Positions 23,128-54,127 of a stretch of 64,000 bases of DNA are shown in pieces (position 1 is the stretch's first letter; every line of letters starts with the position of its first letter). The position numbers were made by a program, and so were the translations under genes. This DNA is from an uncultured Bacteroidia bacterium (GTDB lineage Bacteria > CAIWAD01 > BS150m-G50), in contig CAZCRT010000003.1 of NCBI GenBank assembly GCA_964501185.1, forward strand, positions 24,752 through 88,751, read 5' to 3'. The notes under the pieces were generated by a model. It worked only from the letters and a program-made list of their open reading frames with translations. It made no database searches and was not told the origin of the DNA.

Positions 23128-23176
23128 TCTGAGATCACATCATCCAGATACCGCAACATATGAGAAACCATCACCC

Positions 23177-24925: not shown

Positions 24926-24946
24926 GATTCCCCCGTAGTTGAAAGT

Positions 24947-24976
24947 TTGACATACCATAAGATATTCTGGTAAAAT
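24947..24976 (+). promoter_or_regulatory. sigma70-type promoter (TTGACA-N18-TAAAAT) for the DegT/lipoprotein transcription unit
   Basis: Near-consensus -35 TTGACA at 24947-24952 and -10 TAAAAT at 24971-24976. Leaves a ~235-nt leader before the DegT ATG. Confidence 0.5.
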
Positions 24977-24998
24977 CATCAATACTCAGAGATGATAC

Positions 24999-25086: not shown

Positions 25087-25216
25087 GCACCCGCTGACAG
25101 ACCTCTCGTGAATTCCCCCTTGCATTTCAAAAAGCCTGCAATGATATTTCATGCACTCATATTCAGGGGTGGCCCATACAGCGGTCACCAGACAGTCAAC
25201 AAACTCGGAGTACGCA

Positions 25217-33883: not shown

Positions 33884-34099
33884 TGAATTCCAAAGGAGAA
33901 AGGGTGACCCGGGTTTCAGATACATCTATGGAGTCAGTGAAATCAGTTCAGCAGTCCACTGTTATTTGCTTCGAGTATAATAGTGACAGTGGCTGGAAAA
34001 GCAAAATAGAAAGCTGTTCGGTCATAATGGTCCAGCCTGTCGGGAAGTTATTGAAACGGCTTCTTCGATCCATGCAGCTGAATCCTGCTTCACAATTTC

Positions 34100-36617: not shown

Positions 36618-36790
36618 TTGAGTTCATCGCCAGGAAAAGAACTTCGGTAATCTGATGTGATTCACCTCTCTCTTTCGCTTCTTGTATATCGCCGGATGAA
36701 TTCAAACAGACTCTAACCAGGGGGGTTATCATCAAGCAGGTCGTTTTTAAATCAGGCAAAGCTCTGTGTATTGAAACTGAGGCTCCTCAG

Positions 36791-38872
36791 TTGCCACCGG
36801 GGCATCTTCTGGTTGAGGTCCGGGAAAGTTGTATCAGCCCGGGAACAGAGATGACCAGCCTGACCTCCTCGGGTAAGAGCCTTCTGGAAAAGGCAAAAGC
36901 GCATCCCGACAAACTGAAGGCAGCTCTCGGTAGAATGAAAACTGATGGTGTACTTTCTGTCATTCAGAAAGCGCGCGACAATCAAAGCAGGGAGGCGGCC
37001 AGTGGCTACTCTGCAGCGGGTATAGTCCTGGATGTAGCAGAAGATGTACAGGGATTTCAGAAGGGTGCCCGGGTTGCGGTTGCCGGAGCTGGTTTTGCCA
37101 ATCACGCGGAACTCGTTGCGGTTCCCGTTAACCTTACAATGGCAATTCCTGACGATGTCAGCTTTCGAGACGCCTCTTCCTGCGCTCTGGGGGGGATTGC
37201 ACTGCAGGGTGTCCGTCGCGCTGAAACCACACTCGGCGAAACGGTCGCTGTTATTGGTTGTGGTGCTATCGGCCTGTTGACTGTTCAACTGCTCAAGGCT
37301 GCGGGATGTACGGTTGTGGCAGTTGATCTGGAACCTCGCCGCCTGCAGCTGGCTGAGCAGCTGGGTGCTCACGCCACCTTCAACGCCAACGATAAGCAGC
37401 TTACGGATCTGATCATCCACTACGCTGACGGGCACGGTGTGGATAGAGCTATCATCACCGCTGCGACACAATCAAACATTGTTCTGGCGCAGGCCTTTAA
37501 CATCTGTCGCCGCAAGGGACGGGTGGTTCTGGTGGGCGTTGTCGGGCCTGAATTTAATCGAGCGGATATGTATCCCAAGGAGCTCGATTTTGTCATCTCC
37601 ACCTCCTACGGGCCGGGGCGCTATGACGAAAAGTATGAGCGGTTGGGGCATGATTATCCTTACGCTTATGTACGCTGGACGGAAAAGCGCAACATGGAGG
37701 CCTATCTGAAACTGATCGGCTCCGGTGCAATTCAATTGGACAACATCATTGAGGATTCCTTTACCTTCGAAGACGCACCTCAGGCGTACGCCAGACTTAC
37801 AGGTGAACAGTTGCTGCTGGTTACGCTTTCCTGTTCCGGTAATCCGGATACTCTGAATACCGGTGACAAAGCAGTTGAATCAACAGGCGAGAAACGGATT
37901 GACTGGAGGGCTCCGCAGGGTGTAATCCGACTGGGTTTGACAGGCGCGGGCAGCTTTATGCAAAGCATGCATATTCCCAATCTGAAGCGTCTGGAGGAGT
38001 TGTATCAGGTAACCGCAGTCTGTGATCAGAATGGTCTTGCAGCTCGCCAGGGTGCTCAGCATTTCCAGGAGTGTGACGCGACAACTGATTACGACGGACT
38101 GCTGCAATCGGACATCGATATGGTGCTGATCGGCACCCGGCACAACTCGCACGCTGAACTTGCAATCCGAGCTCTGGAGGCGGGTAAAGCTGTTTTCGTC
38201 GAGAAACCGATGTGTATTACTCTGGATGAGTATGAGAAGTTAACCAGCAGTGTGGCACAGACCAGCGCGCCCTTCATGGTCGGGTACAACAGACGCTTTT
38301 CACCATTCGCTGTCAGAATCAAAGAGCAGATCTCCAGCAGAGTGAATCCTCTTATAATGCAGTACACCATGAACGCCGGATATATCCCATACTCTACCTG
38401 GGTTCATTCTGATGAAGGTGGCGGACGGATTGTCGGTGAAGGTTGTCATCTGATTGATCTCTTTCGTTTCCTGACTGACAGCCCGGTGGTTTCTCTGTCT
38501 GTTGATGCGATCAAACCACGGACAGCCAGTGTTCGCCCCGACGATAATGTTGTGATTACCCTCCGCTATAAAGATGGCTCGATCGGTACCCTGCTCTACA
38601 CCGCACTGGGCTCCACCAGCTCGGAGAAGGAAACCCTGAAGGTCTTCTGTGACGAGCAGCTGTTCGAGCTACATGATTACAGAAGTCTTAAAACATATGG
38701 CGCAACCTCTGATTTCGTACTGAAAAAACAGGATAAGGGCCATCAGGCTGAGCTGCAGGTCTTCGCGGACAAAATCAGGAACGGGGAGCGATTCCCTATT
38801 CCCTGGCCTGAGCTTGTAGAAACCTGGGAAATCACCAGACAGGTTGCAGACATCCTGCGCAAAGGGGATTAG
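36791..38872 (+). CDS. bi-domain oxidoreductase (N-terminal zinc/MDR alcohol dehydrogenase-like plus C-terminal Gfo/Idh/MocA domain), paralog 1
   Basis: N-half: ...AVAGAGFANHAELVAVP..., Rossmann VAVIGCGAIGLLTVQL. C-half: Gfo/Idh/MocA (IRLGLTGAGSFMQSMHIPNL...EKPMCITLDEY). The first canonical start is TTG at 36791. In-frame upstream codons (from ~36728, IIKQVVFKSGKALCIETEAP) align with the N-terminus of paralog 2, so the true start is probably upstream, or non-canonical, or hidden by a sequence error. Confidence 0.75.
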   Translation: MPPGHLLVEVRESCISPGTEMTSLTSSGKSLLEKAKAHPDKLKAALGRMKTDGVLSVIQKARDNQSREAASGYSAAGIVLDVAEDVQGFQKGARVAVAGAGFANHAELVAVPVNLTMAIPDDVSFRDASSCALGGIALQGVRRAETTLGETVAVIGCGAIGLLTVQLLKAAGCTVVAVDLEPRRLQLAEQLGAHATFNANDKQLTDLIIHYADGHGVDRAIITAATQSNIVLAQAFNICRRKGRVVLVGVVGPEFNRADMYPKELDFVISTSYGPGRYDEKYERLGHDYPYAYVRWTEKRNMEAYLKLIGSGAIQLDNIIEDSFTFEDAPQAYARLTGEQLLLVTLSCSGNPDTLNTGDKAVESTGEKRIDWRAPQGVIRLGLTGAGSFMQSMHIPNLKRLEELYQVTAVCDQNGLAARQGAQHFQECDATTDYDGLLQSDIDMVLIGTRHNSHAELAIRALEAGKAVFVEKPMCITLDEYEKLTSSVAQTSAPFMVGYNRRFSPFAVRIKEQISSRVNPLIMQYTMNAGYIPYSTWVHSDEGGGRIVGEGCHLIDLFRFLTDSPVVSLSVDAIKPRTASVRPDDNVVITLRYKDGSIGTLLYTALGSTSSEKETLKVFCDEQLFELHDYRSLKTYGATSDFVLKKQDKGHQAELQVFADKIRNGERFPIPWPELVETWEITRQVADILRKGD

Positions 38873-38902
38873 CTATCAAAAACAAGATGCTGTGGCCATG
38901 CC

Positions 38903-40840
38903 ATGAACTCAGATAACCACCCGATTTCCATCTTACACAGACTGCGGCGACGGGTACGACAGAAGCAGGAAATTGGTCACCCGAACCGGTTTACGCACAA
39001 TATGTCGACCGGGCTGAGTTCAGAGAATCTGTCGGATAACTCCATTGAGCAGCGTCTTCAAAGCTATGTGGCACAGATTCCTTTCGCGGATTCGAACTTC
39101 AGGGAACTGATAACTCAACCTGACCGGGAAGGAATTCTGCGCTCAGCTGATACCGCTCGCGATCATCACTTTGAACTTCTGGGGAGTGGGCCGGTTAAAT
39201 TCGGGCACAACATCGACTGGCACAGAGAGTCTGTAACAGGTTTCCGGTGGAACCCGAATGTTCTGTACAGCCGGGTAAACGCACTTACACCACCCGGTTC
39301 TGATATCAAACACCCCTGGGAGCTGAGTCGTTGCCAGCATTTCTCTGCTCTGGGGCTTGCCTGGCAGCTTACCGACGATGAGGGCTATCTCCGTGAATAT
39401 GTGAATGAAACTGTTGACTGGATCTCAAGCAACCGGGTGGGGTACGGGGTTAACTGGGTTTGTGCAATGGAGGTGGCTATCCGTGCAGTCAACTGGCTGG
39501 CCGGATACTCACTCCTGCAGGAGGCTCTGCAAAAAAGTGAGCATACCCGGTTTCGCAGGGAGTTGACGCTAAGTCTCTGGGAACATGCCCGGTTCATCAG
39601 CACCCATCTCGAGTGGAACGGCCCTTATGCCACAAAACGTGCCAATCACTTCCTGGCCGATCTGACAGGGCTCTTCACCCTGGCTGTTTTGTTTTCCGAC
39701 ACTGCACAGGGTGGTCGCTGGTTGAAGTTTGCCCGGCGTTATCTGGAAGTGGAGATGGCACGGCAGGTACTGGACGATGGTGTTCATTTTGAACGTGCCA
39801 CAAGTTATCATCGTCTCTGTCTGGAGATGTTCCTCTGGTGCTGGAGTCTCGGTAAAGGCGCGGGAGTTCATTTCAGTGATGCTTACCAGCAGCGCTTGTG
39901 GAAAATGCAGGAGTTTGTCCGGGCTTATATTCGCCCCGATGGATCGGCCCCTGTCTGTGGAGATAATGATGACGGCCGCCTGCTCTACTCCGGCGCCAGT
40001 GAAATCAAAGATCATCGTTATCTGAGCTCCCTGACGACAACCGATGTGCCCAATGTGGACCGGATACTGCTGGCTGGAAGCACAACGCCACAGCCCGAAC
40101 AGCAGAACACCGGTTCGATATCTTCAGCTTTCAGGACAGCGGGATACTATTTCCTTAATGGCTCCGGTTACTCCCTGATGATCCGGGCGGGCGCACTGGC
40201 ACATAACGGAACACATGCTCACTGTGACCAGTTGTCCTTCGAGTTAACCCTGGGAACGGAGTCTGTCTTTGTCGATCGTGGCAGTTATGTCTATACATCG
40301 GATGTTGAGATGCGTAACCGTTATCGTGGCACAACTGCCCACAATGTACTTTCCCTGAATGGCGCCGGACAAAACCGACAACTCGGGAATGTGTTCGGTC
40401 TATATGATGATACACAGACTCAGGTGCTGAACATCTCCGGGCACACTCTTCAGGCCCGTCACACCGGTTTCAAGTCGCTCGCCCGTCCAGATGTGGCACA
40501 TACACGCACTTTTCTGATGGACCTGCCGGGGAACGGAATTGAGATCACTGATGAAATCGAGAGTGTACAGGATGGAGATATTGTCGAATGGTATTTCCAT
40601 CTGGCGCCAGGCCTGACCTCTGAGCTGCTGGGTAACAGGATGACTGTGCGCAGGGGTGATAAAGCGATCTGCATTCTGGAATGCCCCGGTCAAACGAGCT
40701 TGAGAATCGAACGGTTTGATCACAGTCCTTCTTACGGCTACCTGCAGGAGGCCGCAACACTCTTTGTTACCAGGCGGATAGAGGATGGTGACACCCCGTA
40801 CAGGGGCCGGTTTCTCATCTCCTTTGGAGAAAACATATGA
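38903..40840 (+). CDS. heparinase II/III-like family protein
   Basis: ...WELSRCQHFSALGLAWQLTDDEGY...NWVCAMEVAIRAVNW... (alpha/alpha toroid N-domain) and ...AHNGTHAHCDQLSFEL... (the H-x-H-x-D-x-LSFEL region of the Hepar_II_III C-domain). Confidence 0.7.
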   Translation: MNSDNHPISILHRLRRRVRQKQEIGHPNRFTHNMSTGLSSENLSDNSIEQRLQSYVAQIPFADSNFRELITQPDREGILRSADTARDHHFELLGSGPVKFGHNIDWHRESVTGFRWNPNVLYSRVNALTPPGSDIKHPWELSRCQHFSALGLAWQLTDDEGYLREYVNETVDWISSNRVGYGVNWVCAMEVAIRAVNWLAGYSLLQEALQKSEHTRFRRELTLSLWEHARFISTHLEWNGPYATKRANHFLADLTGLFTLAVLFSDTAQGGRWLKFARRYLEVEMARQVLDDGVHFERATSYHRLCLEMFLWCWSLGKGAGVHFSDAYQQRLWKMQEFVRAYIRPDGSAPVCGDNDDGRLLYSGASEIKDHRYLSSLTTTDVPNVDRILLAGSTTPQPEQQNTGSISSAFRTAGYYFLNGSGYSLMIRAGALAHNGTHAHCDQLSFELTLGTESVFVDRGSYVYTSDVEMRNRYRGTTAHNVLSLNGAGQNRQLGNVFGLYDDTQTQVLNISGHTLQARHTGFKSLARPDVAHTRTFLMDLPGNGIEITDEIESVQDGDIVEWYFHLAPGLTSELLGNRMTVRRGDKAICILECPGQTSLRIERFDHSPSYGYLQEAATLFVTRRIEDGDTPYRGRFLISFGENI

Positions 40841-41937
40841 ATGTATGCTTCACTTACCTGGGACCTCTGAAATACAGGGGAAGACTGTTCAAGCAGATCA
40901 GAACACTGCAACAGGCGGGACATGAATGTATGCTGATTCATGGGCGCACTGAGCCGGCAACGCCTGATTATTCAATATACAATTTTCCGGTGTCATCCAT
41001 CCGGGTAATCCAGGAACGCGCCAAATTGCTGACGCTGGCAAGCCAGTTGAATTTCTGTCGTAAGGCTGCAAGATTGATTGAGCAGAGTGATGCGGAGGCT
41101 GTTGTCTGTGTGGCGCTCACCAGTGCGTTATCAGGCGCTCTGGCAAAGAAACGCAATCCCCGACTGCGCTATATCTTCGACAGCAATGAACTGGAACTGG
41201 AAAGCTACAGTTCCAGAGTGAAGCAAATTGTGTGGGGGAAAATACAGAATCATATTCTGGGTTTTCCTGATATAGTGATGCACGCTGAGCAACACCGGTT
41301 GAATTACTTCCACGAAACTTACCGGACACAGGCTCGTCCTTTTCTGCTGGAGAACCTGCCATTTTTCCGTGAGACAATTCCGCAGCATGACCGGTCGAAA
41401 GCAATCCGCTGTGTGTACGTAGGCGGATTCATGCCACAGCGTCATTGTGAGGAGATGCTGGAGGCTTTTTCGGAGCCGACAATGCTGGAGGGTGTAACTT
41501 TCGACATGGTCGGTTTCTACGGGCGCCAGAGCTATGAAAAGACAATCACACAGTTGCTGAACAGGATCAACAGTGATCGGATTCGCATTCTACCGCCTGT
41601 ATCACATACTGACATGTATGAACTACTGTCCCGTTATGACATCGGACTGGCATTCTACCAGAACACTGACCTGAATAACTACTACTGCGCTCCCAACAAA
41701 GTGTATGATTACCTCCAGATGGGTATACCGGTTATTACCAATAATTACCCGGGATTGCTCGATATAGTTGGCAGGAACAGGACAGGTGTCTGCCTGCCCC
41801 GGGTGGACGCAGAGCATATTCAAACCGCTGTCAGAACTATCGAAGCGGATGATTTGTATCACAATATTACTGAGGACATCCGTAACCGGTACAGCTGGGA
41901 ACACCAGGAGAAAGCGTATCTGGAGCTGTTCAGTTGA
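40837..41937 (+). CDS. glycosyltransferase (GT-B fold, GT4-like)
   Basis: 366 aa; the ATG overlaps the heparinase-like stop (ATGA) with GGAGAAAACAT RBS. C-terminal ...NKVYDYLQMGIPVI... resembles the GT-B sugar-donor region. Confidence 0.55.
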   Translation: MNVCFTYLGPLKYRGRLFKQIRTLQQAGHECMLIHGRTEPATPDYSIYNFPVSSIRVIQERAKLLTLASQLNFCRKAARLIEQSDAEAVVCVALTSALSGALAKKRNPRLRYIFDSNELELESYSSRVKQIVWGKIQNHILGFPDIVMHAEQHRLNYFHETYRTQARPFLLENLPFFRETIPQHDRSKAIRCVYVGGFMPQRHCEEMLEAFSEPTMLEGVTFDMVGFYGRQSYEKTITQLLNRINSDRIRILPPVSHTDMYELLSRYDIGLAFYQNTDLNNYYCAPNKVYDYLQMGIPVITNNYPGLLDIVGRNRTGVCLPRVDAEHIQTAVRTIEADDLYHNITEDIRNRYSWEHQEKAYLELFS

Positions 41938-42006
41938 GCTCTCCTGACCGGAGTGAGTCGAAATGCTGAAAGTACAGACAGGAAATTCGAGAATGAGGCT
42001 CGTGCC

Positions 42007-43908
42007 ATGTGTGGGATAAGTATCATCCTGAATCGCGCCGGAAAGGAAGTTGATTATACGCTTCCGATGAAGAAAATGCTGACGAGCATGGCACACAGGG
42101 GGCCGGATGACGAAGGAGTACTGTTTGTTAACAATCATTCAGTCGTGTCACAGGGCAATACCGATTCCGATACAGACAGCAGGGCCTTTCTGGCGCTGGG
42201 GCACAGACGGCTGTCCATTATCGATACCTCGGAAAAGGGACATCAGCCGATGTGTTTTGACGATCGCTACTGGATTGTCTTTAACGGAGAGATTTATAAC
42301 TACATAGAGTTGCGGGAAATCCTCGAGCAGGCCGGATACCATTTCCAGACCAGGACTGACACTGAAGTTATACTGGCCGCGTACAGCTACTGGCGGGAGG
42401 ACTGCTTCGAGCGCTTCAATGGTATGTGGGCGCTGGCCATCTACGACTCAGAAGATCAGAAGCTGGTGATTTCCCGGGACAGGGTTGGAATCAAACCACT
42501 GGTTTACTACCAGGATGGTGATACAATTATCCTGGCTTCTGAAATCAAGGCGATCATCTCCACAGGCCTCATTTCCACAACACCCAATCTCAGATACCTG
42601 AAACGCTTCCTCAACGAGGGATCACTTGAATACCTGCGGGAAACTGCTTTCCAGAATATCTACCGGGTACCTGCCGGTACTTATGGTGTAATTGATCTCA
42701 CCCGGGAAACTGTTGAGATCCCGGAAATGACTGTCTTCTGGGATCCCGCCGCAATAGAGGCGGAAGAGGATTCCGTCAGTTATAACGAGCTGGAAAACCG
42801 TTACCGCAACATTCTCCTTGAGAGTGTCAGGTTGAGATTGCGTTCTGATGTGCCGGTGGGTTCTGCGTTTTCAGGCGGTCTCGACAGCTCCTCAATTGTA
42901 CTGATGGTTAACCGGCTGCTTCTGGATGAAGGAAAAACAGAACGGCAACAGACCTTTTCCACGGTTTATCGACAGGAGGGGACACAACACTGCGATGAGA
43001 GCGACTTCATCGATGCAATGACTGCCAGACTGAACCTGAGTTCACACAAAGTTGAACCGGTGGCAGCAGATGTTGCAAAACGGTACATGGAAACAGTTTA
43101 CATGATGGATAGCCCGCAGAAGAACTCCCTCATGTCATACATCTTTACCTATGACCTGATAAAGAAGCATGGTGTTACTGTCTCCATTGACGGGCAGGGT
43201 GCTGATGAAATACAGGGTGGCTACATTTTCTATCTCGTAAATCACCTGGCCAACCTGAGGTTGCGTGAGCTGTTGAGAACAGCCGGGGATTTCCTGCGGC
43301 TCGGGGATTCCAGAAAATACATCGTTTATGGTGTGGCGGTAAATCTGATGCGCCGGGTGGGACTCAAACAGGCCTGGCTGCGAATATTGAAACTAATCGG
43401 ACGCAGTAAGAATCCATTTCTTACATTGAATCAGCGTCTGGTGGAGGATATAAAGGGGAATCTGGTAAACCTGCTCCATTATGGCGATCGGGGAGCGATG
43501 GCATTTTCCGTGGAATCACGATTCCCGTTTCTGGATTATAGAATGATCGAATTCTGGCTCTCGCTGCCGGAAGAGTACAAGCTGAAAGATGGCTGGACAA
43601 AATTTCTGGCGCGTAAATCGTTGGCAGGTGAGCTACCGGATAATATTACCTGGAGAAAACTCAAGCTGGGATGGGCGATGCCGGAAGAGGTCTGGTTCAA
43701 GGGTGAGCTGAAGGATTGGGTGGTGAGTGTACTTGATAATTCGGAATTCATCAAACAGTTCAAACCACTTAATTACAGACGGATTTTGAGCAAGAGGAAG
43801 TCAGGCAGCAAAGAGATACAGAGCGTCATCAGGTATCTGAACACAGCGCTCTGGCATAATATCTTTTTCGGAGAAGATGGACTTCCCTCTGGAGGTGATT
43901 GGAAATGA
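42007..43908 (+). CDS. asparagine synthase (glutamine-hydrolysing)-like amidotransferase (WbpS-type)
   Basis: MCGISII N-terminal nucleophile Cys of the class II glutamine amidotransferase domain; ...SGGLDSSSIV... PP-loop. Confidence 0.85.
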   Translation: MCGISIILNRAGKEVDYTLPMKKMLTSMAHRGPDDEGVLFVNNHSVVSQGNTDSDTDSRAFLALGHRRLSIIDTSEKGHQPMCFDDRYWIVFNGEIYNYIELREILEQAGYHFQTRTDTEVILAAYSYWREDCFERFNGMWALAIYDSEDQKLVISRDRVGIKPLVYYQDGDTIILASEIKAIISTGLISTTPNLRYLKRFLNEGSLEYLRETAFQNIYRVPAGTYGVIDLTRETVEIPEMTVFWDPAAIEAEEDSVSYNELENRYRNILLESVRLRLRSDVPVGSAFSGGLDSSSIVLMVNRLLLDEGKTERQQTFSTVYRQEGTQHCDESDFIDAMTARLNLSSHKVEPVAADVAKRYMETVYMMDSPQKNSLMSYIFTYDLIKKHGVTVSIDGQGADEIQGGYIFYLVNHLANLRLRELLRTAGDFLRLGDSRKYIVYGVAVNLMRRVGLKQAWLRILKLIGRSKNPFLTLNQRLVEDIKGNLVNLLHYGDRGAMAFSVESRFPFLDYRMIEFWLSLPEEYKLKDGWTKFLARKSLAGELPDNITWRKLKLGWAMPEEVWFKGELKDWVVSVLDNSEFIKQFKPLNYRRILSKRKSGSKEIQSVIRYLNTALWHNIFFGEDGLPSGGDWK

Positions 43909-44480
43909 GGATGCTCAGAGAACGGCTGAAGAGCCTTAAGTCGCGTATCCGGTATCCCATGGCCTTTGTGAAGTTCAAGGCATGTGGAAGTAACCTCTGG
44001 CTGGGGCGGCGAGGTGTTTTCGGGCGCCCCGGGGAAATCAGCTTTGGCAACAATGTGTTCATTAACGCCGGTTTTCATATCTCTGCGCGCAATCTCGTTT
44101 TCGGGAACAACATCATGATCGGACCCAATCTTGTTATCGAATGTGATGACCACATCTTTGACCGCGTCGGGGTTACGATATTTGAAAACCGCGATAGCCG
44201 TGAAATCGGTTCTGTAACTATCGAGAATGATGTGTGGCTGGGAGCTGGTGTCACGGTTCTCAAGGGAGTTAAGATTGGGGAAGGGGTTGTAGTTGGTGCT
44301 CACAGTGTAGTGTCAAAAAGTATCCCTCCATATACAATCGCGGTTGGAACTCCCTGTAAGCCGATAAGAACTCGATTCTCTGCGGACCGGTTACGAGAAC
44401 ACCTGCAGTTGATCGATTCTCAATATTCTGCGGAAGCGGTTGAAGCAGCCTGGCTGGAGATGGGGCTGGATAACAGATGA
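43899..44480 (+). CDS. hexapeptide-repeat (LbH) sugar O/N-acetyltransferase (WbpD-like)
   Basis: ...VFINAGFHISARNLVFGNNIMIGPNLVI...VWLGAGVTVLKGVKIGEGVVVGAHSVV... are left-handed beta-helix repeats. Confidence 0.8.
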   Translation: MEMRMLRERLKSLKSRIRYPMAFVKFKACGSNLWLGRRGVFGRPGEISFGNNVFINAGFHISARNLVFGNNIMIGPNLVIECDDHIFDRVGVTIFENRDSREIGSVTIENDVWLGAGVTVLKGVKIGEGVVVGAHSVVSKSIPPYTIAVGTPCKPIRTRFSADRLREHLQLIDSQYSAEAVEAAWLEMGLDNR

Positions 44481-45676
44481 AATCTCGCAATGTCAAAGTG
44501 CTGATCGTTGAACACTCCCTCCCATACTACCATGTCCCGGTCTGGGCTGAAGTCGCCCGGCATCCGGCTATTAATCTGACCGTCGCATTTGGAAGGGGTT
44601 TTTTCACCGGTGCCGGTGGCGTTCCGGAGGGAGTTGTTACTGAAGAGATGGAGTTCAGGACGGTAGTCGAACCCTCAATAGTCAGGAAGATCGCCGGGAA
44701 AACCCTGCTGTGGCACAAAGCGGCTCTGGATGAACTTAAGCGAACCGATTACGATGTGGTGATACATCAATTTGAAACCAAAATTCTCTCCCTCTGGCCT
44801 GTAAAACGTATTCAGAAAAAAAGAGCCGGGCGTTTCATTTTGTGGGGTATCGGTGAATCTTTGAAACCGACTCCTCTTCTTGATCTCCTGCGCAAACGGC
44901 TGGCTGTTTCGACGGACGCAATGGTCTTCTATGCTGACAGTAACCGTGAGCGCTATCTGTCAATGGGATTGGATAAACGGAAGCTTTTTGTTGCCAGAAA
45001 TCTGATCGATATAAAACCGCTGCGTGAATCCTGTCAATCCTGGAACGAGGAACGGCTGCAGCAGTTCAGAGTAGATCAGGATCTCGGGAAGGGCCCGGTA
45101 CTGTTGAGTGTTGGCCGGTTGACAGAACGGAAACGATTGGATCTACTCCTGGAAGCGGCAGTGAAACTCCGCCCTCATCTCCCTGATCTCAGAGTAGTCA
45201 TTATTGGAGATGGCCCGGTGATAGAGCCGCTACAGAGGCAGGTTCAGGAAGCGGATCTTGAAGACACTGTGTTGTTTACCGGCATGATCAGTGATGAAAA
45301 AAAGATAACACCATGGTTTCTGGCGGCTGATCTTGTTGTGGCGCCGGCACAAATCGGCCATCTGGCTACCCATGCTCACGGGTACGGTGTCCCGCTTGTG
45401 ACAGGTGATGATCGCAGCCTGCAGGGACCTGAAATCGAAATTATGATTCCACAGGTAACCGGAATGACTTATGCTCAAAACCAGGTTGATTCTCTGGTCA
45501 GTGTCATCCGCGAACTACTGGCTGATGAAAAAAGGTTGAATGAAATGTCGATTCAAGCTACTCGACGTACGGATGATTTCTGCGGTGTTGAAAAAACGGC
45601 ACAGGGATTTATTGAAGCAGTTCTGCACGTGACAAACCTGGAAGGTGAATGTGAAGCAGATAACCCAGAATCTTAA
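44477..45676 (+). CDS. glycosyltransferase family 4
   Basis: 399 aa; ...LSVGRLTERKRLDLLLEAAVKLRPHLPDLRVVIIGDGP... ATG overlaps the upstream stop (ATGA). Confidence 0.75.
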   Translation: MKSRNVKVLIVEHSLPYYHVPVWAEVARHPAINLTVAFGRGFFTGAGGVPEGVVTEEMEFRTVVEPSIVRKIAGKTLLWHKAALDELKRTDYDVVIHQFETKILSLWPVKRIQKKRAGRFILWGIGESLKPTPLLDLLRKRLAVSTDAMVFYADSNRERYLSMGLDKRKLFVARNLIDIKPLRESCQSWNEERLQQFRVDQDLGKGPVLLSVGRLTERKRLDLLLEAAVKLRPHLPDLRVVIIGDGPVIEPLQRQVQEADLEDTVLFTGMISDEKKITPWFLAADLVVAPAQIGHLATHAHGYGVPLVTGDDRSLQGPEIEIMIPQVTGMTYAQNQVDSLVSVIRELLADEKRLNEMSIQATRRTDDFCGVEKTAQGFIEAVLHVTNLEGECEADNPES

Positions 45677-47816
45677 GAACGGAAAAATGACCATCCTCGA
45701 AGTCCCCGCTCCGGCACCTGGCAAAGGTATGGTGATGGTGCGTAATCACTTCTCACTTATCAGCGCAGGTACGGAAGGGAGCAAGGTGATTACAGCCCGT
45801 AAGAACCTGCTCAGCAAAGCCAGGGAAAAACCGGACCAGGTCAGGCAGGTTCTGGATTCAGTAAAAACTGAAGGCCTCGCATCCACCTACAGAAAGGTCA
45901 TGAACAAACTTGATGCGCCTTCACCCCTCGGGTACAGTTGTGCGGGTGAAGTTATCGCTGTCGGGAGTGATATCGGCGATCTTGAAGTTGGTGACTATGT
46001 TGCCTGTGGCGGTGCCAGCGCTGTCCATGCTGAAATTGTCAGTGTGCCACGTAATCTCTGTGTACCGGTTCCTGACGGTGTCAGCCTGGAACAGGCGGCA
46101 TATACCACTGTTGCAGCTATCGCACTGCAGGGGGTACGTCAGGCTGATTTGCGAACAGGAGAGAACTGTGTCGTTATCGGGCTCGGTTTAATCGGCCAGC
46201 TGACAGTACAGATGCTCAAGGCATCCAATATCAAGGTGATGGGTGTGGATATCAGCAGCGTGGCCGTTGAGTTGGCGATCTCTTCCGGTGCGGATTCAGC
46301 CCGGGTGCGTGACAGCGTAGGGCTTGAAGAAGCTGCGCTTCAACTGAGTGATGGTTTTGGTGTCGATGCGGTAGTTATCACCGCCGGCAGCTCCAGCCTG
46401 GACCCGGTGGAGCTGGCGGGACAGCTATGCCGGAAAAAAGGGAAGGTGGTAATCGTGGGTGCGGTACCTACCGGTTTCTCCCGCAAGCACTACTATGAGA
46501 AGGAGCTCGACCTGCGTATGTCCTGTTCCTACGGGCCGGGACGCTACGACGCCGACTACGAAGAGAAAGGGGTTGACTATCCAATCGGGTTCTGCCGTTG
46601 GACGGAAAACCGCAACATGCAGGCATATCTTGAGATGTGTGACAGGTTGGACATCAGCCTGCTGACAACACACACCTATGCCCTTGATGACGCCATTAAC
46701 GCTTTCGATATGATCGTTGATAAAAGTGAACCGTTCGCAGGCATCCTGATCAGATATAACATCGAGACGGAACCGGAGACGAAAATTCTACTCCAGGAAC
46801 CTCCTGCTGCCGCCGGGCAACCACGAGTCGGGTTTCTGGGAGCGGGGTCCTTCGCGCAGAAGTTCCTGCTGCCAGACATCGGGAAACAGGCCGAGCTGAT
46901 CGGTGTGGCAACAGCCAGTGGCAATAACGCCCGTAATGTTGCAGACAAGTATGGTTTCACCTACGCAACCGGTAACAGTAATGATATTCTGGACGACGAT
47001 GACATAAATACCATCTTCATCGCCACCCGCCATAACCTCCACGCCGAGCAGGTGCTGGCAGCCCTGCAGAAGGGTAAAAATGTCTTCGTGGAAAAACCGC
47101 TCTGTCTGACTACCGATGAGCTTGAACGAATTGCCGGGGCTTATCGTCAGGGAACGGCCCGGTTGATGGTGGGGTTCAACAGGCGTTTTGCACCGCTGCT
47201 GCAGAAGATAAAAAAAGCGCTGCCTGATGGCATACCGGTAGCGATGAACTACCGTATCAATGCAGGGGCGATTCCTGCCGACAGCTGGATTCAGGACCCC
47301 GATATCGGCGGTGGCCGCATTGCTGGTGAGGTGTGTCACTTTATCGACCTGGTACTCTTCCTTGCAGGCAGCCCGTTTGCACGGGTGGATAGCCACATAA
47401 TGAAAACCGCTTCCGGGTTGAATGATACTCTGGTAATAGCTCTGGCTTTTGCAGATGGCAGCGTGGCCAATATCAGTTATTTTGCTAACGGCGCGAAATC
47501 CCTGCCGAAGGAACAACTGGAAGTTCATTGTGGCGGGCAGAGCTGGGTACTGGACGATTTCAAGCGACTGAACATTTATAACGGTTCCAGGAAGAAATCA
47601 TCGACCGGCGGGCAGGATAAGGGGCACGCCCGGGAGGTGGAACTCTTTCTGCAGGCTGTCAGCGACGGCTCTCCTGCTCCAATATCATTTGAGGATATCT
47701 ATCAGGTGACCGCTGCTACCCTCAGTATTACCAGCAGGGCTAAGGAGGAGAGCGCTGATACCCCTGTGGATGGTAGCCTGCAACAGGACCAGGCAGTTTC
47801 AACATCAGGAGAATGA
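45645..47816 (+). CDS. bi-domain oxidoreductase (MDR/ADH-like plus Gfo/Idh/MocA), paralog 2
   Basis: Same architecture as 36791-38872; Rossmann VVIGLGLIGQLTVQM and Gfo/Idh/MocA C-half. GTG start at 45645; alternative ATG at 45687. Confidence 0.75.
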   Translation: MNVKQITQNLKNGKMTILEVPAPAPGKGMVMVRNHFSLISAGTEGSKVITARKNLLSKAREKPDQVRQVLDSVKTEGLASTYRKVMNKLDAPSPLGYSCAGEVIAVGSDIGDLEVGDYVACGGASAVHAEIVSVPRNLCVPVPDGVSLEQAAYTTVAAIALQGVRQADLRTGENCVVIGLGLIGQLTVQMLKASNIKVMGVDISSVAVELAISSGADSARVRDSVGLEEAALQLSDGFGVDAVVITAGSSSLDPVELAGQLCRKKGKVVIVGAVPTGFSRKHYYEKELDLRMSCSYGPGRYDADYEEKGVDYPIGFCRWTENRNMQAYLEMCDRLDISLLTTHTYALDDAINAFDMIVDKSEPFAGILIRYNIETEPETKILLQEPPAAAGQPRVGFLGAGSFAQKFLLPDIGKQAELIGVATASGNNARNVADKYGFTYATGNSNDILDDDDINTIFIATRHNLHAEQVLAALQKGKNVFVEKPLCLTTDELERIAGAYRQGTARLMVGFNRRFAPLLQKIKKALPDGIPVAMNYRINAGAIPADSWIQDPDIGGGRIAGEVCHFIDLVLFLAGSPFARVDSHIMKTASGLNDTLVIALAFADGSVANISYFANGAKSLPKEQLEVHCGGQSWVLDDFKRLNIYNGSRKKSSTGGQDKGHAREVELFLQAVSDGSPAPISFEDIYQVTAATLSITSRAKEESADTPVDGSLQQDQAVSTSGE

Positions 47817-47840
47817 GTCACGCATACTTCCACGAGCAAT

Positions 47841-48974
47841 ATGATCACCAATCTTGAAAACTGGCTCGTCCGGCATGAATGGCGGGGCTGGGACCCTTTT
47901 GACGCGCTGAACTCCCCCTTCCTGAAAACACTCACCCTGGGCGGGCGCTATCCAGGTATCGCCCTGCTGCAACTGTTGAAGCGGCTACCTCTGAATCTGC
48001 GCCCACTGTTGCGCGTACCACAGGTACACAATGCCAAGGCGATGGGGTTATTCCTTAACGCACATGCAATAAGACTTGAACGGGATCGCAATGAAAACGA
48101 TTTGCAGCGTATCACTTTCTTCGCTGACTGGCTCGCGCAAAATGCCAATCGGGAGTATGGTGGCGCTGGCTGGGGTTACCCGTTTGACTGGCCAAATCGA
48201 ACTTTCAACTGCCCTGCCGGGACACCAACTGTTGTCAACACTGCTTTCATTGGATTTGGACTGCTGAAGGCGTATCAGGTGACACAACGCCCGGCACTAC
48301 TCGATCTGGCACTATCTGCGGCAGAGTTCATTGCTGAAGGGTTGAACCTGCACAGTGATGACAGCGGGGAGTGTGCCAGCTACACGCCGCTTGATAATGC
48401 ACAGATTCATAATGCCAACCTGCTGGGTGCAGCACTGCTTCTGGAAGTCGGTTCCCTTCAGCAGAACGGGGAGTTGATCGACGGCGGTAGACGCCGTCTG
48501 AACTGGTCTCTGGCCGGTCAGGCTGATGATGGTTCCTGGCCGTATGGGACGACTGAACGCCAGAGTTGGATTGACAGCTTTCACACCGGTTATAACCTTG
48601 AAGCACTTGACCGGGCTGTCTCGGTAACACATGATCCAAAGGTTGAGGCTGCCCTGGATCGGGGATACCGCTTCTACATTGATAATTTCTTCCTGCATGA
48701 CGGAACCGTGAAGTACTACCATAACAACGCATACCCGCTTGATGCCCATGCCTTCGCGCACGCTGTTATTACCCTGACCCGGCTGCAACGGCTGGATTCG
48801 CGCAGTCTGCCCTTGCGAGAGCGTGTATTGGAGCAGATGATGCGGCGTTTCTGGAACAAGCGTGGATTTTTCTACTACCAGCAGAAGAAGCGTTGTACCA
48901 ACCGTATCGCCTATACTCGCTGGGTACAGGCCTGGAGCTACCTGGCGCTTATAACCTGTAATGATGGGAATTGA
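47841..48974 (+). CDS. hypothetical protein (possibly alpha/alpha-toroid sugar-modifying enzyme, e.g. C5-epimerase-like)
   Basis: 377 aa, Trp/aromatic-rich (...GGAGWGYPFDWPNRTF..., ...WIDSFHTGYNLEAL...). Functional guess comes only from fold-like composition and neighbourhood. Confidence 0.4.
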   Translation: MITNLENWLVRHEWRGWDPFDALNSPFLKTLTLGGRYPGIALLQLLKRLPLNLRPLLRVPQVHNAKAMGLFLNAHAIRLERDRNENDLQRITFFADWLAQNANREYGGAGWGYPFDWPNRTFNCPAGTPTVVNTAFIGFGLLKAYQVTQRPALLDLALSAAEFIAEGLNLHSDDSGECASYTPLDNAQIHNANLLGAALLLEVGSLQQNGELIDGGRRRLNWSLAGQADDGSWPYGTTERQSWIDSFHTGYNLEALDRAVSVTHDPKVEAALDRGYRFYIDNFFLHDGTVKYYHNNAYPLDAHAFAHAVITLTRLQRLDSRSLPLRERVLEQMMRRFWNKRGFFYYQQKKRCTNRIAYTRWVQAWSYLALITCNDGN

Positions 48975-48975
48975 G

Positions 48976-49986
48976 ATGTCACTGATCTGGATAGATATTG
49001 ACAACCTGCCGCACATTCCGATTTTCCAGCCTTTGATTAGGGAGTTCGAAGAGGCGGGACATAAGGTTCTGCTTACCGTCAGAGACTTTGCTTACTCTGT
49101 TGAAAAGCTGGAAGACAGCGGACTGAGTTTTCACGTGATCGGCAGGCACTACGGCAAAGCGACTGTGAGCAAAGTAGCCGGAACTCTTCTGCGGGCCGGA
49201 CAGCTGCGCCGGTTCCTGAGTGATTACACTGTTGACCTGGCGGTATCACATTCTTCCCGTTCTGCAATCCTGGCCAGCCGGTCATTACGCATACCAACTG
49301 TTGCCATGTTTGATTACGAGCATGTTTCCACAACCCTGCAGGAAAAATTCGCCACTGATATCCTGGTACCGGAGCTTCTGTTAGGGGATGGTTCGAACTT
49401 AAGTTCCAGCAAATATCACGGCTACCCCGGGTACAAAGAGGAGATCTACCTGGCTGATTTTGTTCCCGTTGCTGATTTCCGCCAGGAGTTACAGGTACCA
49501 CCTGATTCGATTCTGGCAGTACTGCGCCCACCTGCGACAGAAGCGCATTACCATAATCCTGAGGCGGAAGCCATCTTTCAGGGGATACTGGAAAGGCTTT
49601 CCGCAAACGGTCTGTTCACGCTGATCACACCCCGCTCAACCGCTCAGGCAGCTCAATTCAACAATCTTCCCGGGGAACGATTTCGTGTGCTGACCCGACC
49701 GGTTGATGGTTTGAATTTGATATCAGCTGCAGATTTCGTAATATCGGGTGGCGGAACGATGAATCGAGAAGCGGCACTACTGGGAACACCTGTTTACTCC
49801 TTCTTCAGAGGTAAATCTGGCAGCCTGGATCGAAACCTGGCAGCATCGGGAAAGCTGGTATTTATAACCAGCATAGAGGAAGTATTACAAATCCCCTGCC
49901 AGCGTAAGAAACTCACTCAACATCACGCTGTCGGGCAAGAGGTTAAGAAGTTTGTGTCACGTTTCCTGATTGAGCAGCTACAGTAA
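48976..49986 (+). CDS. DUF354 domain-containing protein (GT-B-like, polysaccharide-cluster associated)
   Basis: N-terminus ...IWIDIDNLPHIPIFQPLIREFEEAGHKVLLTVRDFAYSVEKLE... matches the DUF354 start pattern as I remember it (IWIDI.N.PHV..F.PII.EL...GHEV.ITARD). Start at 48976 with GGGAATTGAG RBS, just past the upstream stop. Confidence 0.55.
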   Translation: MSLIWIDIDNLPHIPIFQPLIREFEEAGHKVLLTVRDFAYSVEKLEDSGLSFHVIGRHYGKATVSKVAGTLLRAGQLRRFLSDYTVDLAVSHSSRSAILASRSLRIPTVAMFDYEHVSTTLQEKFATDILVPELLLGDGSNLSSSKYHGYPGYKEEIYLADFVPVADFRQELQVPPDSILAVLRPPATEAHYHNPEAEAIFQGILERLSANGLFTLITPRSTAQAAQFNNLPGERFRVLTRPVDGLNLISAADFVISGGGTMNREAALLGTPVYSFFRGKSGSLDRNLAASGKLVFITSIEEVLQIPCQRKKLTQHHAVGQEVKKFVSRFLIEQLQ

Positions 49987-50075: not shown

Positions 50076-51524
50076 ATGATCCTTGGAAAGCGACCGGCTT
50101 ACAAATATTTCCTGGCGTTGATGGATTACATCATCGTCAACTTCTCTTTTGCCCTGGCAATGCGCCTGCGCTTTCGTCCCCGGATTGATATCATAAACCT
50201 GAATACGCTTGAAGTCATTCCGGAGATTATCGTCTTTGCGCTGCTTTCGATTCTCTGGATCTGGATCCTCCAGTACCACAATCTCTACAAGTTCAAAGTG
50301 TTCCTCAGTGTTGCCCGTCAACAGGTGCTGTTGCTGCGTTCGCTTGCCTACTCGACCCTGGTGATGGTGCTGCTGCAGTACTTTATAAAACCGTCCGGAA
50401 AAGTGGAAAGCCGCCTGGTTATACTACTGACCTTCCTGTTCAGCCTGGTACTGCTTTCAATCTGGCGACTCCTCATCTACCGCAGGCTGTATCGATTGTT
50501 TGCACGTAATAAGATGTTACGACGCAGTTCAGTAATCGTCGGCTTTGGCGAACAGGCTAAGAAGATAGCCGCCAGTATTCTGGCTGATAAGGAGATCGGT
50601 AAGCAGCTGATCGGATTTGTCGATAACGACATTCCGGTAGGTACCCCTGTTTTCAGTAAATTCTTCAATATTGGCACTACCTCGGAACTCGCTGAAATTG
50701 CCAGAGACTATCAGATAGACGAGGTGATCATAGCTTCCGAGCATCTCTCTCACGAGGATATGCTCGACCTGATTGATTTATGTCACACCATCAAAATGCC
50801 GGTACAGGTATCAGCACCACTCTACCGGGTCATTTCCGACCGCACACAGGTAGAAGTGTATAATGATATTCCGGCTGTTCAGTTCTCCAATCCGCAGATT
50901 GCGCCCTGGTACAGAGTCTACAAAAGAGCTTTTGATCTCGTCGGCGCCCTGTCAGGGATTCTGCTTTTTGCTCCTTTCTGGCTGCTGATAATTTTTCTGA
51001 TCAGGTTGGATTCACGGGGTTCGGTGCTCTTCAAACAGCAACGTATCGGCCTGGGTGGAAAACCATTCAGCTTTTATAAATTCCGTTCCATGCGCACTGA
51101 TGCTTCTGACGCTGATCATCGCAGGTTTGTTCAGGAGTTCATGGCCAGTAGCGAGACAGATGACAACAAAACACAGAAGATTCAGAACGACCCCCGTGTC
51201 ACAAGAATTGGCTCCTTCCTGCGCAGGTACAGTCTTGATGAACTGCCACAATTTCTGAGCGTTGTGCGGGGAGACATGAGCCTGGTCGGGCCCCGCCCCT
51301 GCCTGCCCTGGGAATGGGAGGAGTACGAGGACTGGCAGAAACGACGTCTCAGTGTAAAACCGGGTTGCACCGGTCTCTGGCAGGTGAGTGGTCGCAGTGA
51401 AGTCGGGTTTAAGGATATGGTAGTGCTCGACCTGTATTACGCTGACAATGCATCCCCCTGGTTTGATCTGCAGTTGATATTGAAAACTATTCCGGTAATG
51501 TTTTTTGGCAGGGGAGGACACTGA
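50076..51524 (+). CDS. initiating polyprenyl-phosphate hexose-1-phosphate transferase (bacterial sugar transferase, WbaP/WcaJ-like)
   Basis: Four or five N-terminal TM helices and a central CoA-binding-like domain. C-terminal ...[54 protein letters not shown]...[21 protein letters not shown] is the Bac_transf signature. Confidence 0.85.
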
Positions 51525-54018: not shown

Positions 54019-54127
54019 TTCCTTTTTGCATGAAGATTCCGGTTTTTCTTACCCGCCGGTCTGCTTATCCTTTTGTTAAGCAGATCGGCTTATTGTATCA
54101 CATGAGTAGTTTCAGGAAGCAGAACAG

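Follow-up and report, generated by a model that had tools for sequence, protein, structure and literature searches.

What two fused oxidoreductases do together in one polysaccharide operon is the question raised by a locus of an uncultured Bacteroidia bacterium. The locus lies in a stretch of 64,000 nucleotides of contig CAZCRT010000003.1 (positions 24,752 to 88,751; assembly GCA_964501185.1), hereafter the window, whose own numbering is used throughout. Inside its Wzx/Wzy operon, a sub-cluster of nine genes encodes the fused oxidoreductases (BiOx1 and BiOx2), a protein resembling heparinase II/III, an AsnB-like amidotransferase, a DUF354 protein, and a protein (P8) that the preliminary description of this DNA had called an aromatic-rich hypothetical. 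We propose that the sub-cluster holds a widespread sugar-tailoring module of the "redox + acid/base" kind in two non-identical copies. Module 1 would comprise BiOx1, the cytoplasmic heparinase II/III-like protein, a glycosyltransferase (GT), and AsnB. Module 2 would comprise BiOx2, the VpsJ/Agl32-like (α/α)6 protein P8, and DUF354 in place of a WecG-type transferase.

Bacterial routes to L-configured N-acetylhexosaminuronic acids, the residues that such modules would make, are largely unsolved. N-acetyl-L-galactosaminuronic acid (L-GalNAcA) is present, by old reports, in the emulsan-type capsules of Acinetobacter, and N-acetyl-L-gulosaminuronic acid (L-GulNAcA) is present in the Vibrio cholerae polysaccharide (VPS). 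L-GalNAcA also occurs in Pseudomonas aeruginosa O10/O19 (PMC11200240). The VpsJ proposal dates from as late as 2026 (PMC13463779), and the identification of Agl32 from 2025 (PMC12624080).

The two fused oxidoreductases belong to different deep clades

Nine co-directional open reading frames (ORFs), all on the + strand, occupy 36791-49986. The ORF list and Pfam confirm the nine genes, their shared direction, and their Wzx/Wzy context, all as first described. Neighbors overlap or are separated by at most 32 bp, and the run looks like an operon. The co-directional run is wider than these nine genes and extends from Wzy (34195) to kdsA (54865). Domains were assigned with Pfam and NCBIfam profiles, by PDB sequence searches, and by comparison of AlphaFold2 (AF2) models with Foldseek.

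BiOx1 (36731..38872, +; Pfam ADH_zinc_N + GFO_IDH_MocA) and BiOx2 (45645..47816, +; Pfam ADH_N/ADH_zinc_N + GFO_IDH_MocA) share the architecture of one family: ~700 aa, with an N-terminal medium-chain dehydrogenase/reductase (MDR)/ADH_zinc_N half and a C-terminal Gfo/Idh/MocA half. BiOx1 has >7,350 homologues, nearly all of ~710 aa and the same architecture, under the NCBI name "bi-domain-containing oxidoreductase". Homologues occur in Kiritimatiella, Pontiella, Verrucomicrobia, Clostridium botulinum, C. sporogenes, and one archaeal metagenome-assembled genome. A PDB sequence search returned no solved structure of a family member, and in the literature the family name was found in one paper, which is irrelevant here.

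The preliminary description spoke of duplicated oxidoreductases. Two fused genes are indeed present, but the proteins are only 38% identical over their full length in a pairwise alignment and fall into different deep clades of a neighbor-joining (NJ) tree of the bi-domain family. "Duplicated" is therefore misleading. Judged from the tree, BiOx1 and BiOx2 are old paralogues or separately acquired genes, with no recent duplication.

In the AF2 model of BiOx1 (pLDDT 90, pTM 0.85), a complete MDR fold is joined to a complete Gfo fold. The MDR half matches MDR alcohol dehydrogenases and resembles secondary-alcohol and ketone reductases; the structures nearest to it are TADH, butanediol dehydrogenase, AibC, and Zta1. 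The structures nearest to the Gfo half are DgpA1, levoglucosan dehydrogenase, and KanD2, all of which are sugar C3-dehydrogenases. Both active sites depart from the textbook motifs across 86 bi-domain sequences from many phyla. The "GHE" zinc motif of the MDR half is replaced by G-Y-S, with Tyr at the His position in 86/86 sequences, and the first zinc-ligand Cys is not conserved. The catalytic strand of the Gfo half reads G-E-x-C-H-x-x-D, in which E, C, and H are invariant in 86/86 sequences; the canonical motif, D-x-x-x-H, is found in DgpA and in a lone Gfo protein of the window. BiOx1 and BiOx2 both carry G-Y-S, G-E-x-C-H-x-x-D, and the family insert SYGPGRYD..YE..G.DYP..RWTE.RN.

The MDR half of BiOx1 contains two family-specific inserts that are absent from ordinary MDR dehydrogenases (residues ~290-321 and 39-85, numbered from 36731). 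Insert 1 is nearly invariant and rich in Arg and Tyr (S.SYGPGRYD..YE..G.DYP....RWTE.RN), and it is modeled with low confidence (pLDDT 55-71). Insert 2 forms four helices directly after the S-x-I-S-x-G-T-E motif. Both are possible binding sites for the nucleotide or lipid-diphosphate portion of the substrate.

The start of BiOx1 is unusual. The mechanical ORF begins at TTG 36791, and gene callers shortened the protein to 672-673 aa in both the window and a relative. However, no ATG, GTG, or TTG is present where the Met-Lys-Gln N-terminus of the family aligns (window 36716-36800). The in-frame codons at this point are ATC-ATC-AAG-CAG, preceded by a purine-rich run that resembles a Shine-Dalgarno sequence. 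The same four codons are kept in the relative at ~71% identity (L168 1380-1500), which makes a conserved non-canonical start more probable than a sequencing error. ATC at 36731, instead of TTG 36791, is most likely the start codon, as the alignment suggests.

Each fused oxidoreductase has its own partner

Two sets of loci were surveyed. The bi-domain set comprises 82 loci, 80 from a scan of representative genomes plus those of Kiritimatiella glycovorans (L001) and C. sporogenes (L002). Of these, 74 have room downstream for next-neighbor counts; other counts use 55 well-flanked bi-domain loci. The P8 set comprises 80 metagenome loci with a P8 homologue, 44 of them with room upstream; with both sets combined, 50 P8 loci have room downstream.

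A heparinase-like gene is present in 40 of the 82 bi-domain loci, on the same strand every time, and is the immediate downstream neighbor of the bi-domain gene in 20/74. In the window, the heparinase-like gene (start 38903) comes directly after BiOx1 (end 38872). The order bi-domain, heparinase-like, GT4 recurs in K. glycovorans, with whose bi-domain protein BiOx1 groups in the NJ tree. The clade of BiOx1 is also rich in the order bi-domain, AsnB or CapK, then heparinase-like.

P8 homologues are present in six of the 82 bi-domain loci. They adjoin the bi-domain gene in 6/6, and a heparinase-like gene is present in 0/6. Seen from the other side, 25 of the 44 P8 metagenome loci have a same-strand bi-domain gene upstream, directly adjacent in 17. 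In the NJ tree, BiOx2 falls among bi-domain genes with a VpsJ-like gene after them (L035, L061, L045, and L046), and L061 repeats the window order bi-domain, P8, DUF354. Thus each paralogue of the window has its own partner, the heparinase-like protein for BiOx1 and P8 for BiOx2, and both pairings recur across phyla. The paralogue phylogeny called for at the outset splits BiOx1 and BiOx2 by partner type; in this tree, their clades track the partner.

One metagenome contig (L103, SDBT01061420.1) carries a bi-domain gene, a VpsJ-like gene, and then an apparent heparinase-like gene (104-bit match, 298 bp downstream). Both partners stand there in a row, and the partner types are therefore not strictly exclusive. 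In P8 loci that lack a bi-domain gene, we also looked upstream of P8 for MDR and Gfo halves encoded separately; the genes there are of the GT1 and CapK/AMP-binding-like types.

Amide ligases are the commonest neighbors of the bi-domain family after the heparinase-like protein. AsnB is directly downstream of the bi-domain gene in 12/74 loci, a CapK-like adenylate-forming ligase is the immediate neighbor in five, and AsnB is directly upstream in the VpsJ-like cassettes L087 and L099. WecB co-occurs with the bi-domain gene in 22 of the 55 well-flanked loci.

The heparinase II/III-like partner of BiOx1

The partner of BiOx1 (38903..40840, +) contains N- and C-terminal PL12-type domains (Pfam Hepar_II_III_N and Hepar_II_III_C, 101 and 121 bits) with the Asn/Tyr/His set. 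Its best PDB match is Pedobacter heparinase III (4mmh, E 8e-19), and the N-H, Y-H, and H..D positions are kept in the alignment. These positions we take to be the catalytic N240, Y294, and H424 of heparinase III. Lyase-fold proteins can be uronic-acid C5-epimerases via the same proton abstraction. The protein has no signal peptide and no transmembrane segment, and is thus predicted to work in the cytoplasm, unlike true heparinases. BiOx1, BiOx2, P8, and DUF354 likewise lack both features. The heparinase-like protein also scores far below the HepC equivalog NF045573 (101.6 bits vs a cutoff of 700). We consider it a candidate C5 (or 3,5) epimerase that acts with BiOx1.

Biosynthetic roles have been reported or postulated for related proteins. 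The heparinase II/III-like protein VV0358 of Vibrio vulnificus is required for the capsule (PMC6037467), and GnlB of Acinetobacter baumannii was recently recognized as heparinase-like (bioRxiv 10.64898/2026.07.20.739706). The genes gnlA/gnlB are homologues of weeE/weeF of strain RAG-1, the postulated makers of UDP-L-GalNAcA (PMC9676051, citing Nakar and Gutnick 2001). The window protein matches WeeF/GnlB, the postulated co-worker of WeeE/GnlA in making UDP-L-GalNAcA (PMC9676051), and its role is thus less of a blank than the preliminary description supposed.

The match to weeE/weeF is by name for weeF and by gene position only for weeE. In A. junii (L071), the order is WecB, UDP-glucose dehydrogenase (UGDH), left-handed β-helix (LbH) protein, two further genes, bi-domain, heparinase-like, GT, phosphoglycosyltransferase, LbH, and DegT, presumably the order of the wee cluster. 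Homologues of the L071 heparinase-like protein are named weeF. The equation of WeeE with the bi-domain protein comes from this gene order; the RAG-1 sequence itself is not its basis. An A. baumannii locus (L166, LKJZ01000133.1) shares the order around weeF with L071, but has no bi-domain gene upstream of weeF and therefore does not confirm the equation. L166 resembles the published gnlB-without-gnlA case KL215 and offers a natural experiment on what the fused oxidoreductase adds.

P8 resembles VpsJ and Agl32 in its modeled fold

P8 (47841..48974, +; 377 aa) has no Pfam, NCBIfam, or PDB sequence match. Its AF2 model is an (α/α)6 barrel (pLDDT 94.8), and the best Foldseek matches are the cellobiose 2-epimerases 5zhb, 3vw5, 3wkf, and 5zig. 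The nearest solved structures reported are 3WKF for VpsJ (PMC13463779) and 5ZIG for Agl32 (PMC12624080). No NCBIfam model matches the P8 homologue P0221, which NCBI names VpsJ. The link between P8 and VpsJ consists of the shared nearest folds, the gene context, and, at the level of sequence, this one NCBI-named homologue. The modeled fold fits the VpsJ/Agl32-type class and makes P8 a candidate C5 epimerase partner of BiOx2.

VpsJ of V. cholerae is proposed to be a C5 epimerase of a new class that converts lipid-linked N-acetyl-D-mannosaminuronic acid (D-ManNAcA) into L-GulNAcA; in its absence (ΔvpsJ), assembly of the VPS repeat unit stops at the disaccharide stage (PMC13463779). Agl32/VNG1058H of Halobacterium salinarum is reported to convert glucuronic acid into iduronic acid (PMC12624080).

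The gene after P8 provides further context. A WecG/TagA-family transferase follows P8 in 31 of the 50 loci and DUF354 in four, and both are present in none. Where a P8 locus has no bi-domain gene, the usual order is CapK/AMP-binding-like, GT1, P8, WecG. The order CapK-like, GT, P8, WecG mirrors that of vpsH-vpsI-vpsJ-vpsK. The DUF354 protein of the window (48961..49986, +) matches Pfam DUF354 (PF04007) at 123.5 bits vs a gathering score of 22, with a weak Glyco_trans_4_4 match. It has no PDB sequence match, and a literature search on DUF354 yielded nothing usable, the term being confounded by DUF354x names. Since DUF354 holds the WecG/TagA position after P8 and coexists with WecB in L087 (P8, WecB, then DUF354), it is probably a glycosyltransferase, a GT-B-fold protein in the slot of the ManNAc(A) transferase.

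Proposed amidation and the remaining genes of the sub-cluster

The AsnB-like glutamine-dependent amidotransferase (42007..43908, +; mechanical ORF 41953-43908) has a class-II amidotransferase domain (GATase_7, 156 bits), an Asn_synthase domain (202 bits), and an N-terminal Cys nucleophile, as expected of the AsnB type (WbpS-like). It passes TIGR01536 (400 bits vs a cutoff of 267), whose profile begins at Cys20 of the mechanical ORF, after Met19. A class-II amidotransferase needs Cys first after Met; by this reasoning, the true start must be ATG 42007 instead of GTG 41953. We propose that the protein amidates a C6 carboxyl. The preliminary description expected a uronic acid, probably amidated, and this theme is plausible because AsnB-like and CapK-like ligases are so common beside the bi-domain family; the 2,3-diacetamido pattern that it added finds little support, as discussed below.

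The remaining genes encode a GT-B glycosyltransferase (40837..41937, +; Pfam Glycos_transf_1), an LbH O-acetyltransferase of the LacA/Maa/WbbJ type (43899..44480, +; Pfam Hexapep, NCBIfam, and PDB), and a GT4-type glycosyltransferase (44477..45676, +; Pfam Glycos_transf_1, 85 bits).

Proposed mechanism

The starting points of the mechanism are observed: the domain architectures, the folds, the cytoplasmic location, gene pairs conserved from phylum to phylum, and operons elsewhere in which the fused enzyme stands beside a canonical 6-dehydrogenase. We favor a keto-mediated epimerization at C3 (or C4) and C5 by each pair, followed by AsnB amidation and O-acetylation, and put the chance that this is right at somewhat under even. 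The substrate would be UDP-ManNAc from WecB, with a 6-carboxyl supplied by a UGDH/WecC-type enzyme encoded elsewhere in the genome. The Gfo/Idh/MocA half would form a ketone by oxidizing a ring hydroxyl at C3 or C4. The partner, heparinase-like or VpsJ-like, would then take off and re-add the C5 proton, and possibly the C3 proton, and the zinc-less MDR half would reduce the ketone. Overall, a D-ManNAcA-type residue would become a hexosaminuronic acid of the L configuration. Finally, AsnB would turn the carboxyl into an amide, and the LbH enzyme would O-acetylate the residue. In Fischer-projection bookkeeping, L-GulNAcA is the 5-epimer and L-GalNAcA the 3,5-epimer of D-ManNAcA.

An oxidize, epimerize, reduce route suits a module in which one dehydrogenase domain oxidizes, the other reduces, and the acid/base step falls to a second protein. 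The resemblance of the Gfo half to the sugar C3-dehydrogenases DgpA, levoglucosan dehydrogenase, and KanD2 and to UDP-GlcNAc 3-dehydrogenase (NF040723) also counts in its favor. We infer the substrate, the ring positions, the order of the steps, and the level of action, whether nucleotide sugar or lipid-linked intermediate. Amidation and then O-acetylation after epimerization would parallel the order VpsJ, VpsH, VpsG in VPS (PMC13463779).

Several points weigh against this mechanism. The functions of all bi-domain family members and of the biosynthetic heparinase-like proteins are predictions. Redox-neutral epimerizations are usually the work of a single short-chain dehydrogenase/reductase (SDR) active site rather than of a fused pair of dehydrogenases. 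The heparinase-like protein of the window is only 22% identical to WeeF (A. baumannii P0243). No UGDH is present within the ~79 kb examined, which leaves the uronic-acid premise a supposition for the source organism. The L-GalNAcA assignment in RAG-1 is old literature cited second-hand (PMC9676051), and the epimerase role of VpsJ was itself proposed from a deletion phenotype only (PMC13463779).

The fused enzymes probably do not replace a 6-dehydrogenase

The preliminary description noted that the locus lacks a WbpA-type gene and suggested that the two fused oxidoreductases replace it. The absence is borne out. A tblastn search with a true UGDH from C. sporogenes found no UDPG_MGDP_dh-type gene in the window, and no UGDH is present in the ~7 kb beyond either window end on the source contig. 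The fused proteins have only a sub-threshold match to the UDPG_MGDP_dh Rossmann domain (Pfam, 17-18 bits vs a cutoff of 27).

The replacement would work as follows. The fused oxidoreductase would be a new sugar 6-dehydrogenase in place of WbpA/WecC, acting on UDP-ManNAc or lipid-linked ManNAc. Its MDR half would take the C6 alcohol to the aldehyde and its Gfo half the aldehyde to the acid, the partner would epimerize C5, and AsnB would amidate the product. Two dehydrogenase domains suit two successive two-electron oxidations, and the active-site strand of the Gfo half is altered to an E-x-C-H that is invariant in 86/86 sequences. Besides the lack of a UGDH-type gene in the window and the adjoining ~15 kb, UGDH is found in only 18 of the 55 well-flanked bi-domain loci and in only 8/26 of those with an amide ligase. 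The typical cassette reads AsnB, bi-domain, P8, WecG, WecB, without WecC. It parallels VpsH, VpsB, VpsJ, VpsK, and VpsA of V. cholerae, with the bi-domain gene at the place of VpsB (PMC13463779), and the Acinetobacter naming implicitly ties gnlA to the "A" of GalNAcA (PMC9676051).

In our view, the points against this replacement are weightier. The L117 operon contains, in this order, a bi-domain gene, a UGDH gene with all three UDPG_MGDP_dh domains, P8, and WecG, and the L152 operon, again in order, a bi-domain gene, P8, WecB, and UGDH. The fused enzyme must do something besides 6-oxidation there, since a canonical UGDH is encoded with WecB or WecG in the same tight operon. In A. junii (L071), WecB and UGDH, an mnaA/mnaB-type pair, lie upstream of the bi-domain and heparinase-like genes. 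These three loci speak against the fused enzymes as substitutes for WbpA. Further, UGDH and the bi-domain gene are not complementary among VpsJ-like loci, a comparison limited by flanks (±6 kb) too short to tell much. Given the vps gene order, vpsB itself would lie outside flanks of 6-10 kb in V. cholerae, and the absence of UGDH nearby is therefore weak evidence. The nearest characterized relatives of the Gfo half oxidize secondary hydroxyls, not aldehydes. We considered the invariant Cys of E-x-C-H as a sign of thiohemiacetal (6-oxidation) chemistry and rejected it as diagnostic: C-H stands here in the ordinary 3''-dehydrogenase KanD2 as well (D-L-G-C-H). Overall, a 6-dehydrogenase role is disfavored, and we judge it unlikely.

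Flanking genes argue against a Wbp-type pathway

Upstream (5') of the sub-cluster lie genes for DegT, a signal-peptide β-helix protein, a GT, Wzx, a pyruvyl transferase, a nitroreductase-family protein, WecB, Wzy, and a GT4. Downstream (3') lie a WbaP/WcaJ-type transferase, an outer-membrane protein, a lone Gfo/Idh/MocA gene, and kdsA. Housekeeping genes border the polysaccharide locus on both sides, and the block from BiOx1 to kdsA is syntenic in one relative at ~70% identity. A protein with a Por_Secre_tail match suggests an organism of the FCB group, and close homologues carry the name Candidatus Delongbacteria. The initiating polyprenyl-phosphate sugar-phosphate transferase (50076..51524, +) has Bac_transf and CoA_binding_3 domains and passes TIGR03025 (401 bits, above the cutoff).

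In the preliminary description, these surroundings were compared with the Pseudomonas Wbp genes. In a full Wbp-type reading, WbpB/E/D/I-like enzymes would make an amidated 2,3-diacetamido-2,3-dideoxy uronic acid (ManNAc3NAcA-like), and the sub-cluster would serve as accessory tailoring. The pyruvyl transferase (30523-31767, -), WecB, DegT, and lone Gfo genes are present as described, and a 2-epimerase and an AsnB-like gene do occur together in the locus. The lone Gfo/Idh/MocA gene (53014-54018) has UDP-GlcNAc 3-dehydrogenase as its best NCBIfam match (NF040723, 160 bits). The DegT aminotransferase (25151-26329), of the C3 type by PDB search, matches the C3-aminotransferases QdtB, DesV, and WbpE, the last at E 6e-62.

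However, two of the five enzymes of the WbpA-B-E-D-I series, WbpA and WbpD, are missing from the window, which leaves the analogy unsupported. The sole LbH gene of the locus is of the O-acetyltransferase type rather than a WbpD/WlbB-type N-acetyltransferase. Its best NCBIfam matches are WbbJ, Vat, and LacA, and its best PDB matches are galactoside, maltose, and streptogramin O-acetyltransferases (E ~1e-19), with WlbB (3mqg) at only 7e-8. The 2-epimerase (32747..33925, -; Pfam Epimerase_2, 412 bits), first read as WbpI/WecB-like, passes the plain wecB equivalog for non-hydrolyzing UDP-GlcNAc 2-epimerases (TIGR00236, 524 bits vs a cutoff of 210). The lone Gfo gene, first read as WbpB-like, is under the NF040723 cutoff (160 vs 450 bits), and WlbA (3q2i, 3q2k) is not among its PDB matches at E 1e-10 or better, the best of which are 3c1a and 7bvj. 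We take 7bvj to be the lipid A enzyme GnnA. The gene lies immediately upstream of kdsA, suggesting a role in making 2,3-diamino-2,3-dideoxyglucose (GlcN3N) for lipid A, and the Gfo-kdsA pairing (53014-54865) is kept in the relative L167. It is also 27 kb from the DegT gene, at the opposite edge of the locus. A GnnA/GnnB-like pair for GlcN3N lipid A seems at least as likely a role for DegT and the lone Gfo gene as that of WbpB/WbpE. In sum, a Wbp-type pathway is quite improbable.

Least probable of all, and very much so, is a degradative or editing role for the sub-cluster (recycling or chain trimming and no monomer tailoring), in which the heparinase-like protein would be a true lyase, P8 a GH88/GH105-like unsaturated-uronyl hydrolase, and the fused oxidoreductase a reductase of the resulting keto/ene sugar acid: the PL12-type Pfam domains with an apparently intact catalytic set, and an MDR half that is zinc-less like the ene-reductases Zta1, AibC, and PIG3, would suit it, but all these proteins are cytoplasmic without a signal peptide, their genes stand within biosynthetic operons among GTs, Wzy, and the initiating transferase across phyla, VV0358 is needed for the capsule (PMC6037467), and ΔvpsJ blocks repeat-unit assembly at the disaccharide stage (PMC13463779).

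Three further features of the surroundings deserve mention. The nitroreductase-family gene (31748-32713, -) and the start of the pyruvyl transferase gene share 20 bp (both genes together 30523-32713, -). This overlap suggests a coupled modification, e.g., one in which an enolpyruvyl ether is reduced to a lactyl ether. The gene at 26378-27721 encodes 447 aa, with an N-terminus that looks like a signal peptide and with Beta_helix/NosD matches; this right-handed β-helix protein could be an exported enzyme acting on the polymer, either a lyase/depolymerase or an AlgG-type epimerase. Just outside the locus, 19124-24982 encodes a DUF4159 protein, then a 1138-aa ORF without a Pfam match, and, on the opposite strand, a 601-aa protein with a sub-threshold match to Por_Secre_tail, a sorting domain of the type IX secretion system (25.9 bits vs a cutoff of 27).

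Discussion

The components of the system have in part been named before, as weeE/weeF = gnlA/gnlB and as VpsJ. In the literature, we found no description of a fused oxidoreductase that pairs interchangeably with a lyase-fold or an (α/α)6-fold partner, of a pairing that tracks the oxidoreductase phylogeny, or of both pair types in one operon. The comparative pattern provides a concrete minimal gene set: a fused oxidoreductase, a heparinase-like or VpsJ-like partner, and often an AsnB-like or CapK-like ligase. It offers a functional hypothesis for thousands of proteins annotated as "bi-domain-containing oxidoreductase", "heparinase II/III family protein", or hypothetical in capsule and O-antigen loci, including Acinetobacter K loci and C. 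botulinum. Taken to its furthest, the fused MDR and Gfo/Idh/MocA protein with its interchangeable partner would form a hitherto overlooked cross-phylum system for L-hexosaminuronic acids, and in the boldest version at least one clade, the BiOx2-type, would be a new class of sugar 6-dehydrogenase, working on lipid-linked ManNAc in place of the UGDH superfamily; we regard this as unlikely.

Several known systems invite comparison. The WbpA/WecC/UGDH family differs from what is seen here in that the window has no UDPG_MGDP_dh domain, and in L117, L152, and L071 the fused enzyme occurs together with a true UGDH in one operon or locus. Heparinase III (PL12) shares the Hepar_II_III domains and the aligned Asn/Tyr/His residues with the partner of BiOx1, and the animal C5-epimerases (dermatan sulfate epimerase and the heparan sulfate enzyme Glce) are comparable as epimerases with a lyase fold. 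Heparinase III differs in that the window protein is cytoplasmic, far below the HepC cutoff, and within a biosynthetic operon.

Module 1 is most like WeeE/WeeF of the "emulsan" cluster of A. venetianus RAG-1 and GnlA/GnlB of A. baumannii K loci. In the wee-type locus L071 of A. junii, a bi-domain gene directly followed by a heparinase-like gene likewise stands in a Wzx/Wzy capsule locus with a UDP-GlcNAc 2-epimerase. BiOx1, however, is in another deep clade than the L071 bi-domain protein, and WecB (mnaA-type) is present in the window without an adjacent mnaB/UGDH. By Kenyon's criterion for orthology to the Acinetobacter proteins (>85% identity), the window proteins are not orthologues of WeeE/WeeF.

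Module 2 is most like the VpsJ system. P8 and VpsJ/Agl32 are alike as soluble (α/α)6 proteins of ~375 aa with the cellobiose 2-epimerases 3WKF/5ZIG as nearest solved epimerase folds, and members of the P8 family are mostly directly upstream of a WecG-family transferase, like VpsJ. In the window, by contrast, P8 is paired with a fused oxidoreductase and followed by DUF354 in place of WecG, and the amide ligase is AsnB-type rather than CapK-type as in V. cholerae. V. cholerae is not known to have such a fused oxidoreductase.

The chemistry that we favor for both modules would resemble, by analogy, the routes of GDP-mannose 3,5-epimerase and RmlC/RmlD, in which a sugar is oxidized to a keto sugar, the neighboring positions are epimerized, and the ketone is reduced, converting D-manno into L-galacto. 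Those routes use an SDR or a cupin with one active site, whereas here the same chemistry would be split over a fused MDR and Gfo protein and a separate partner.

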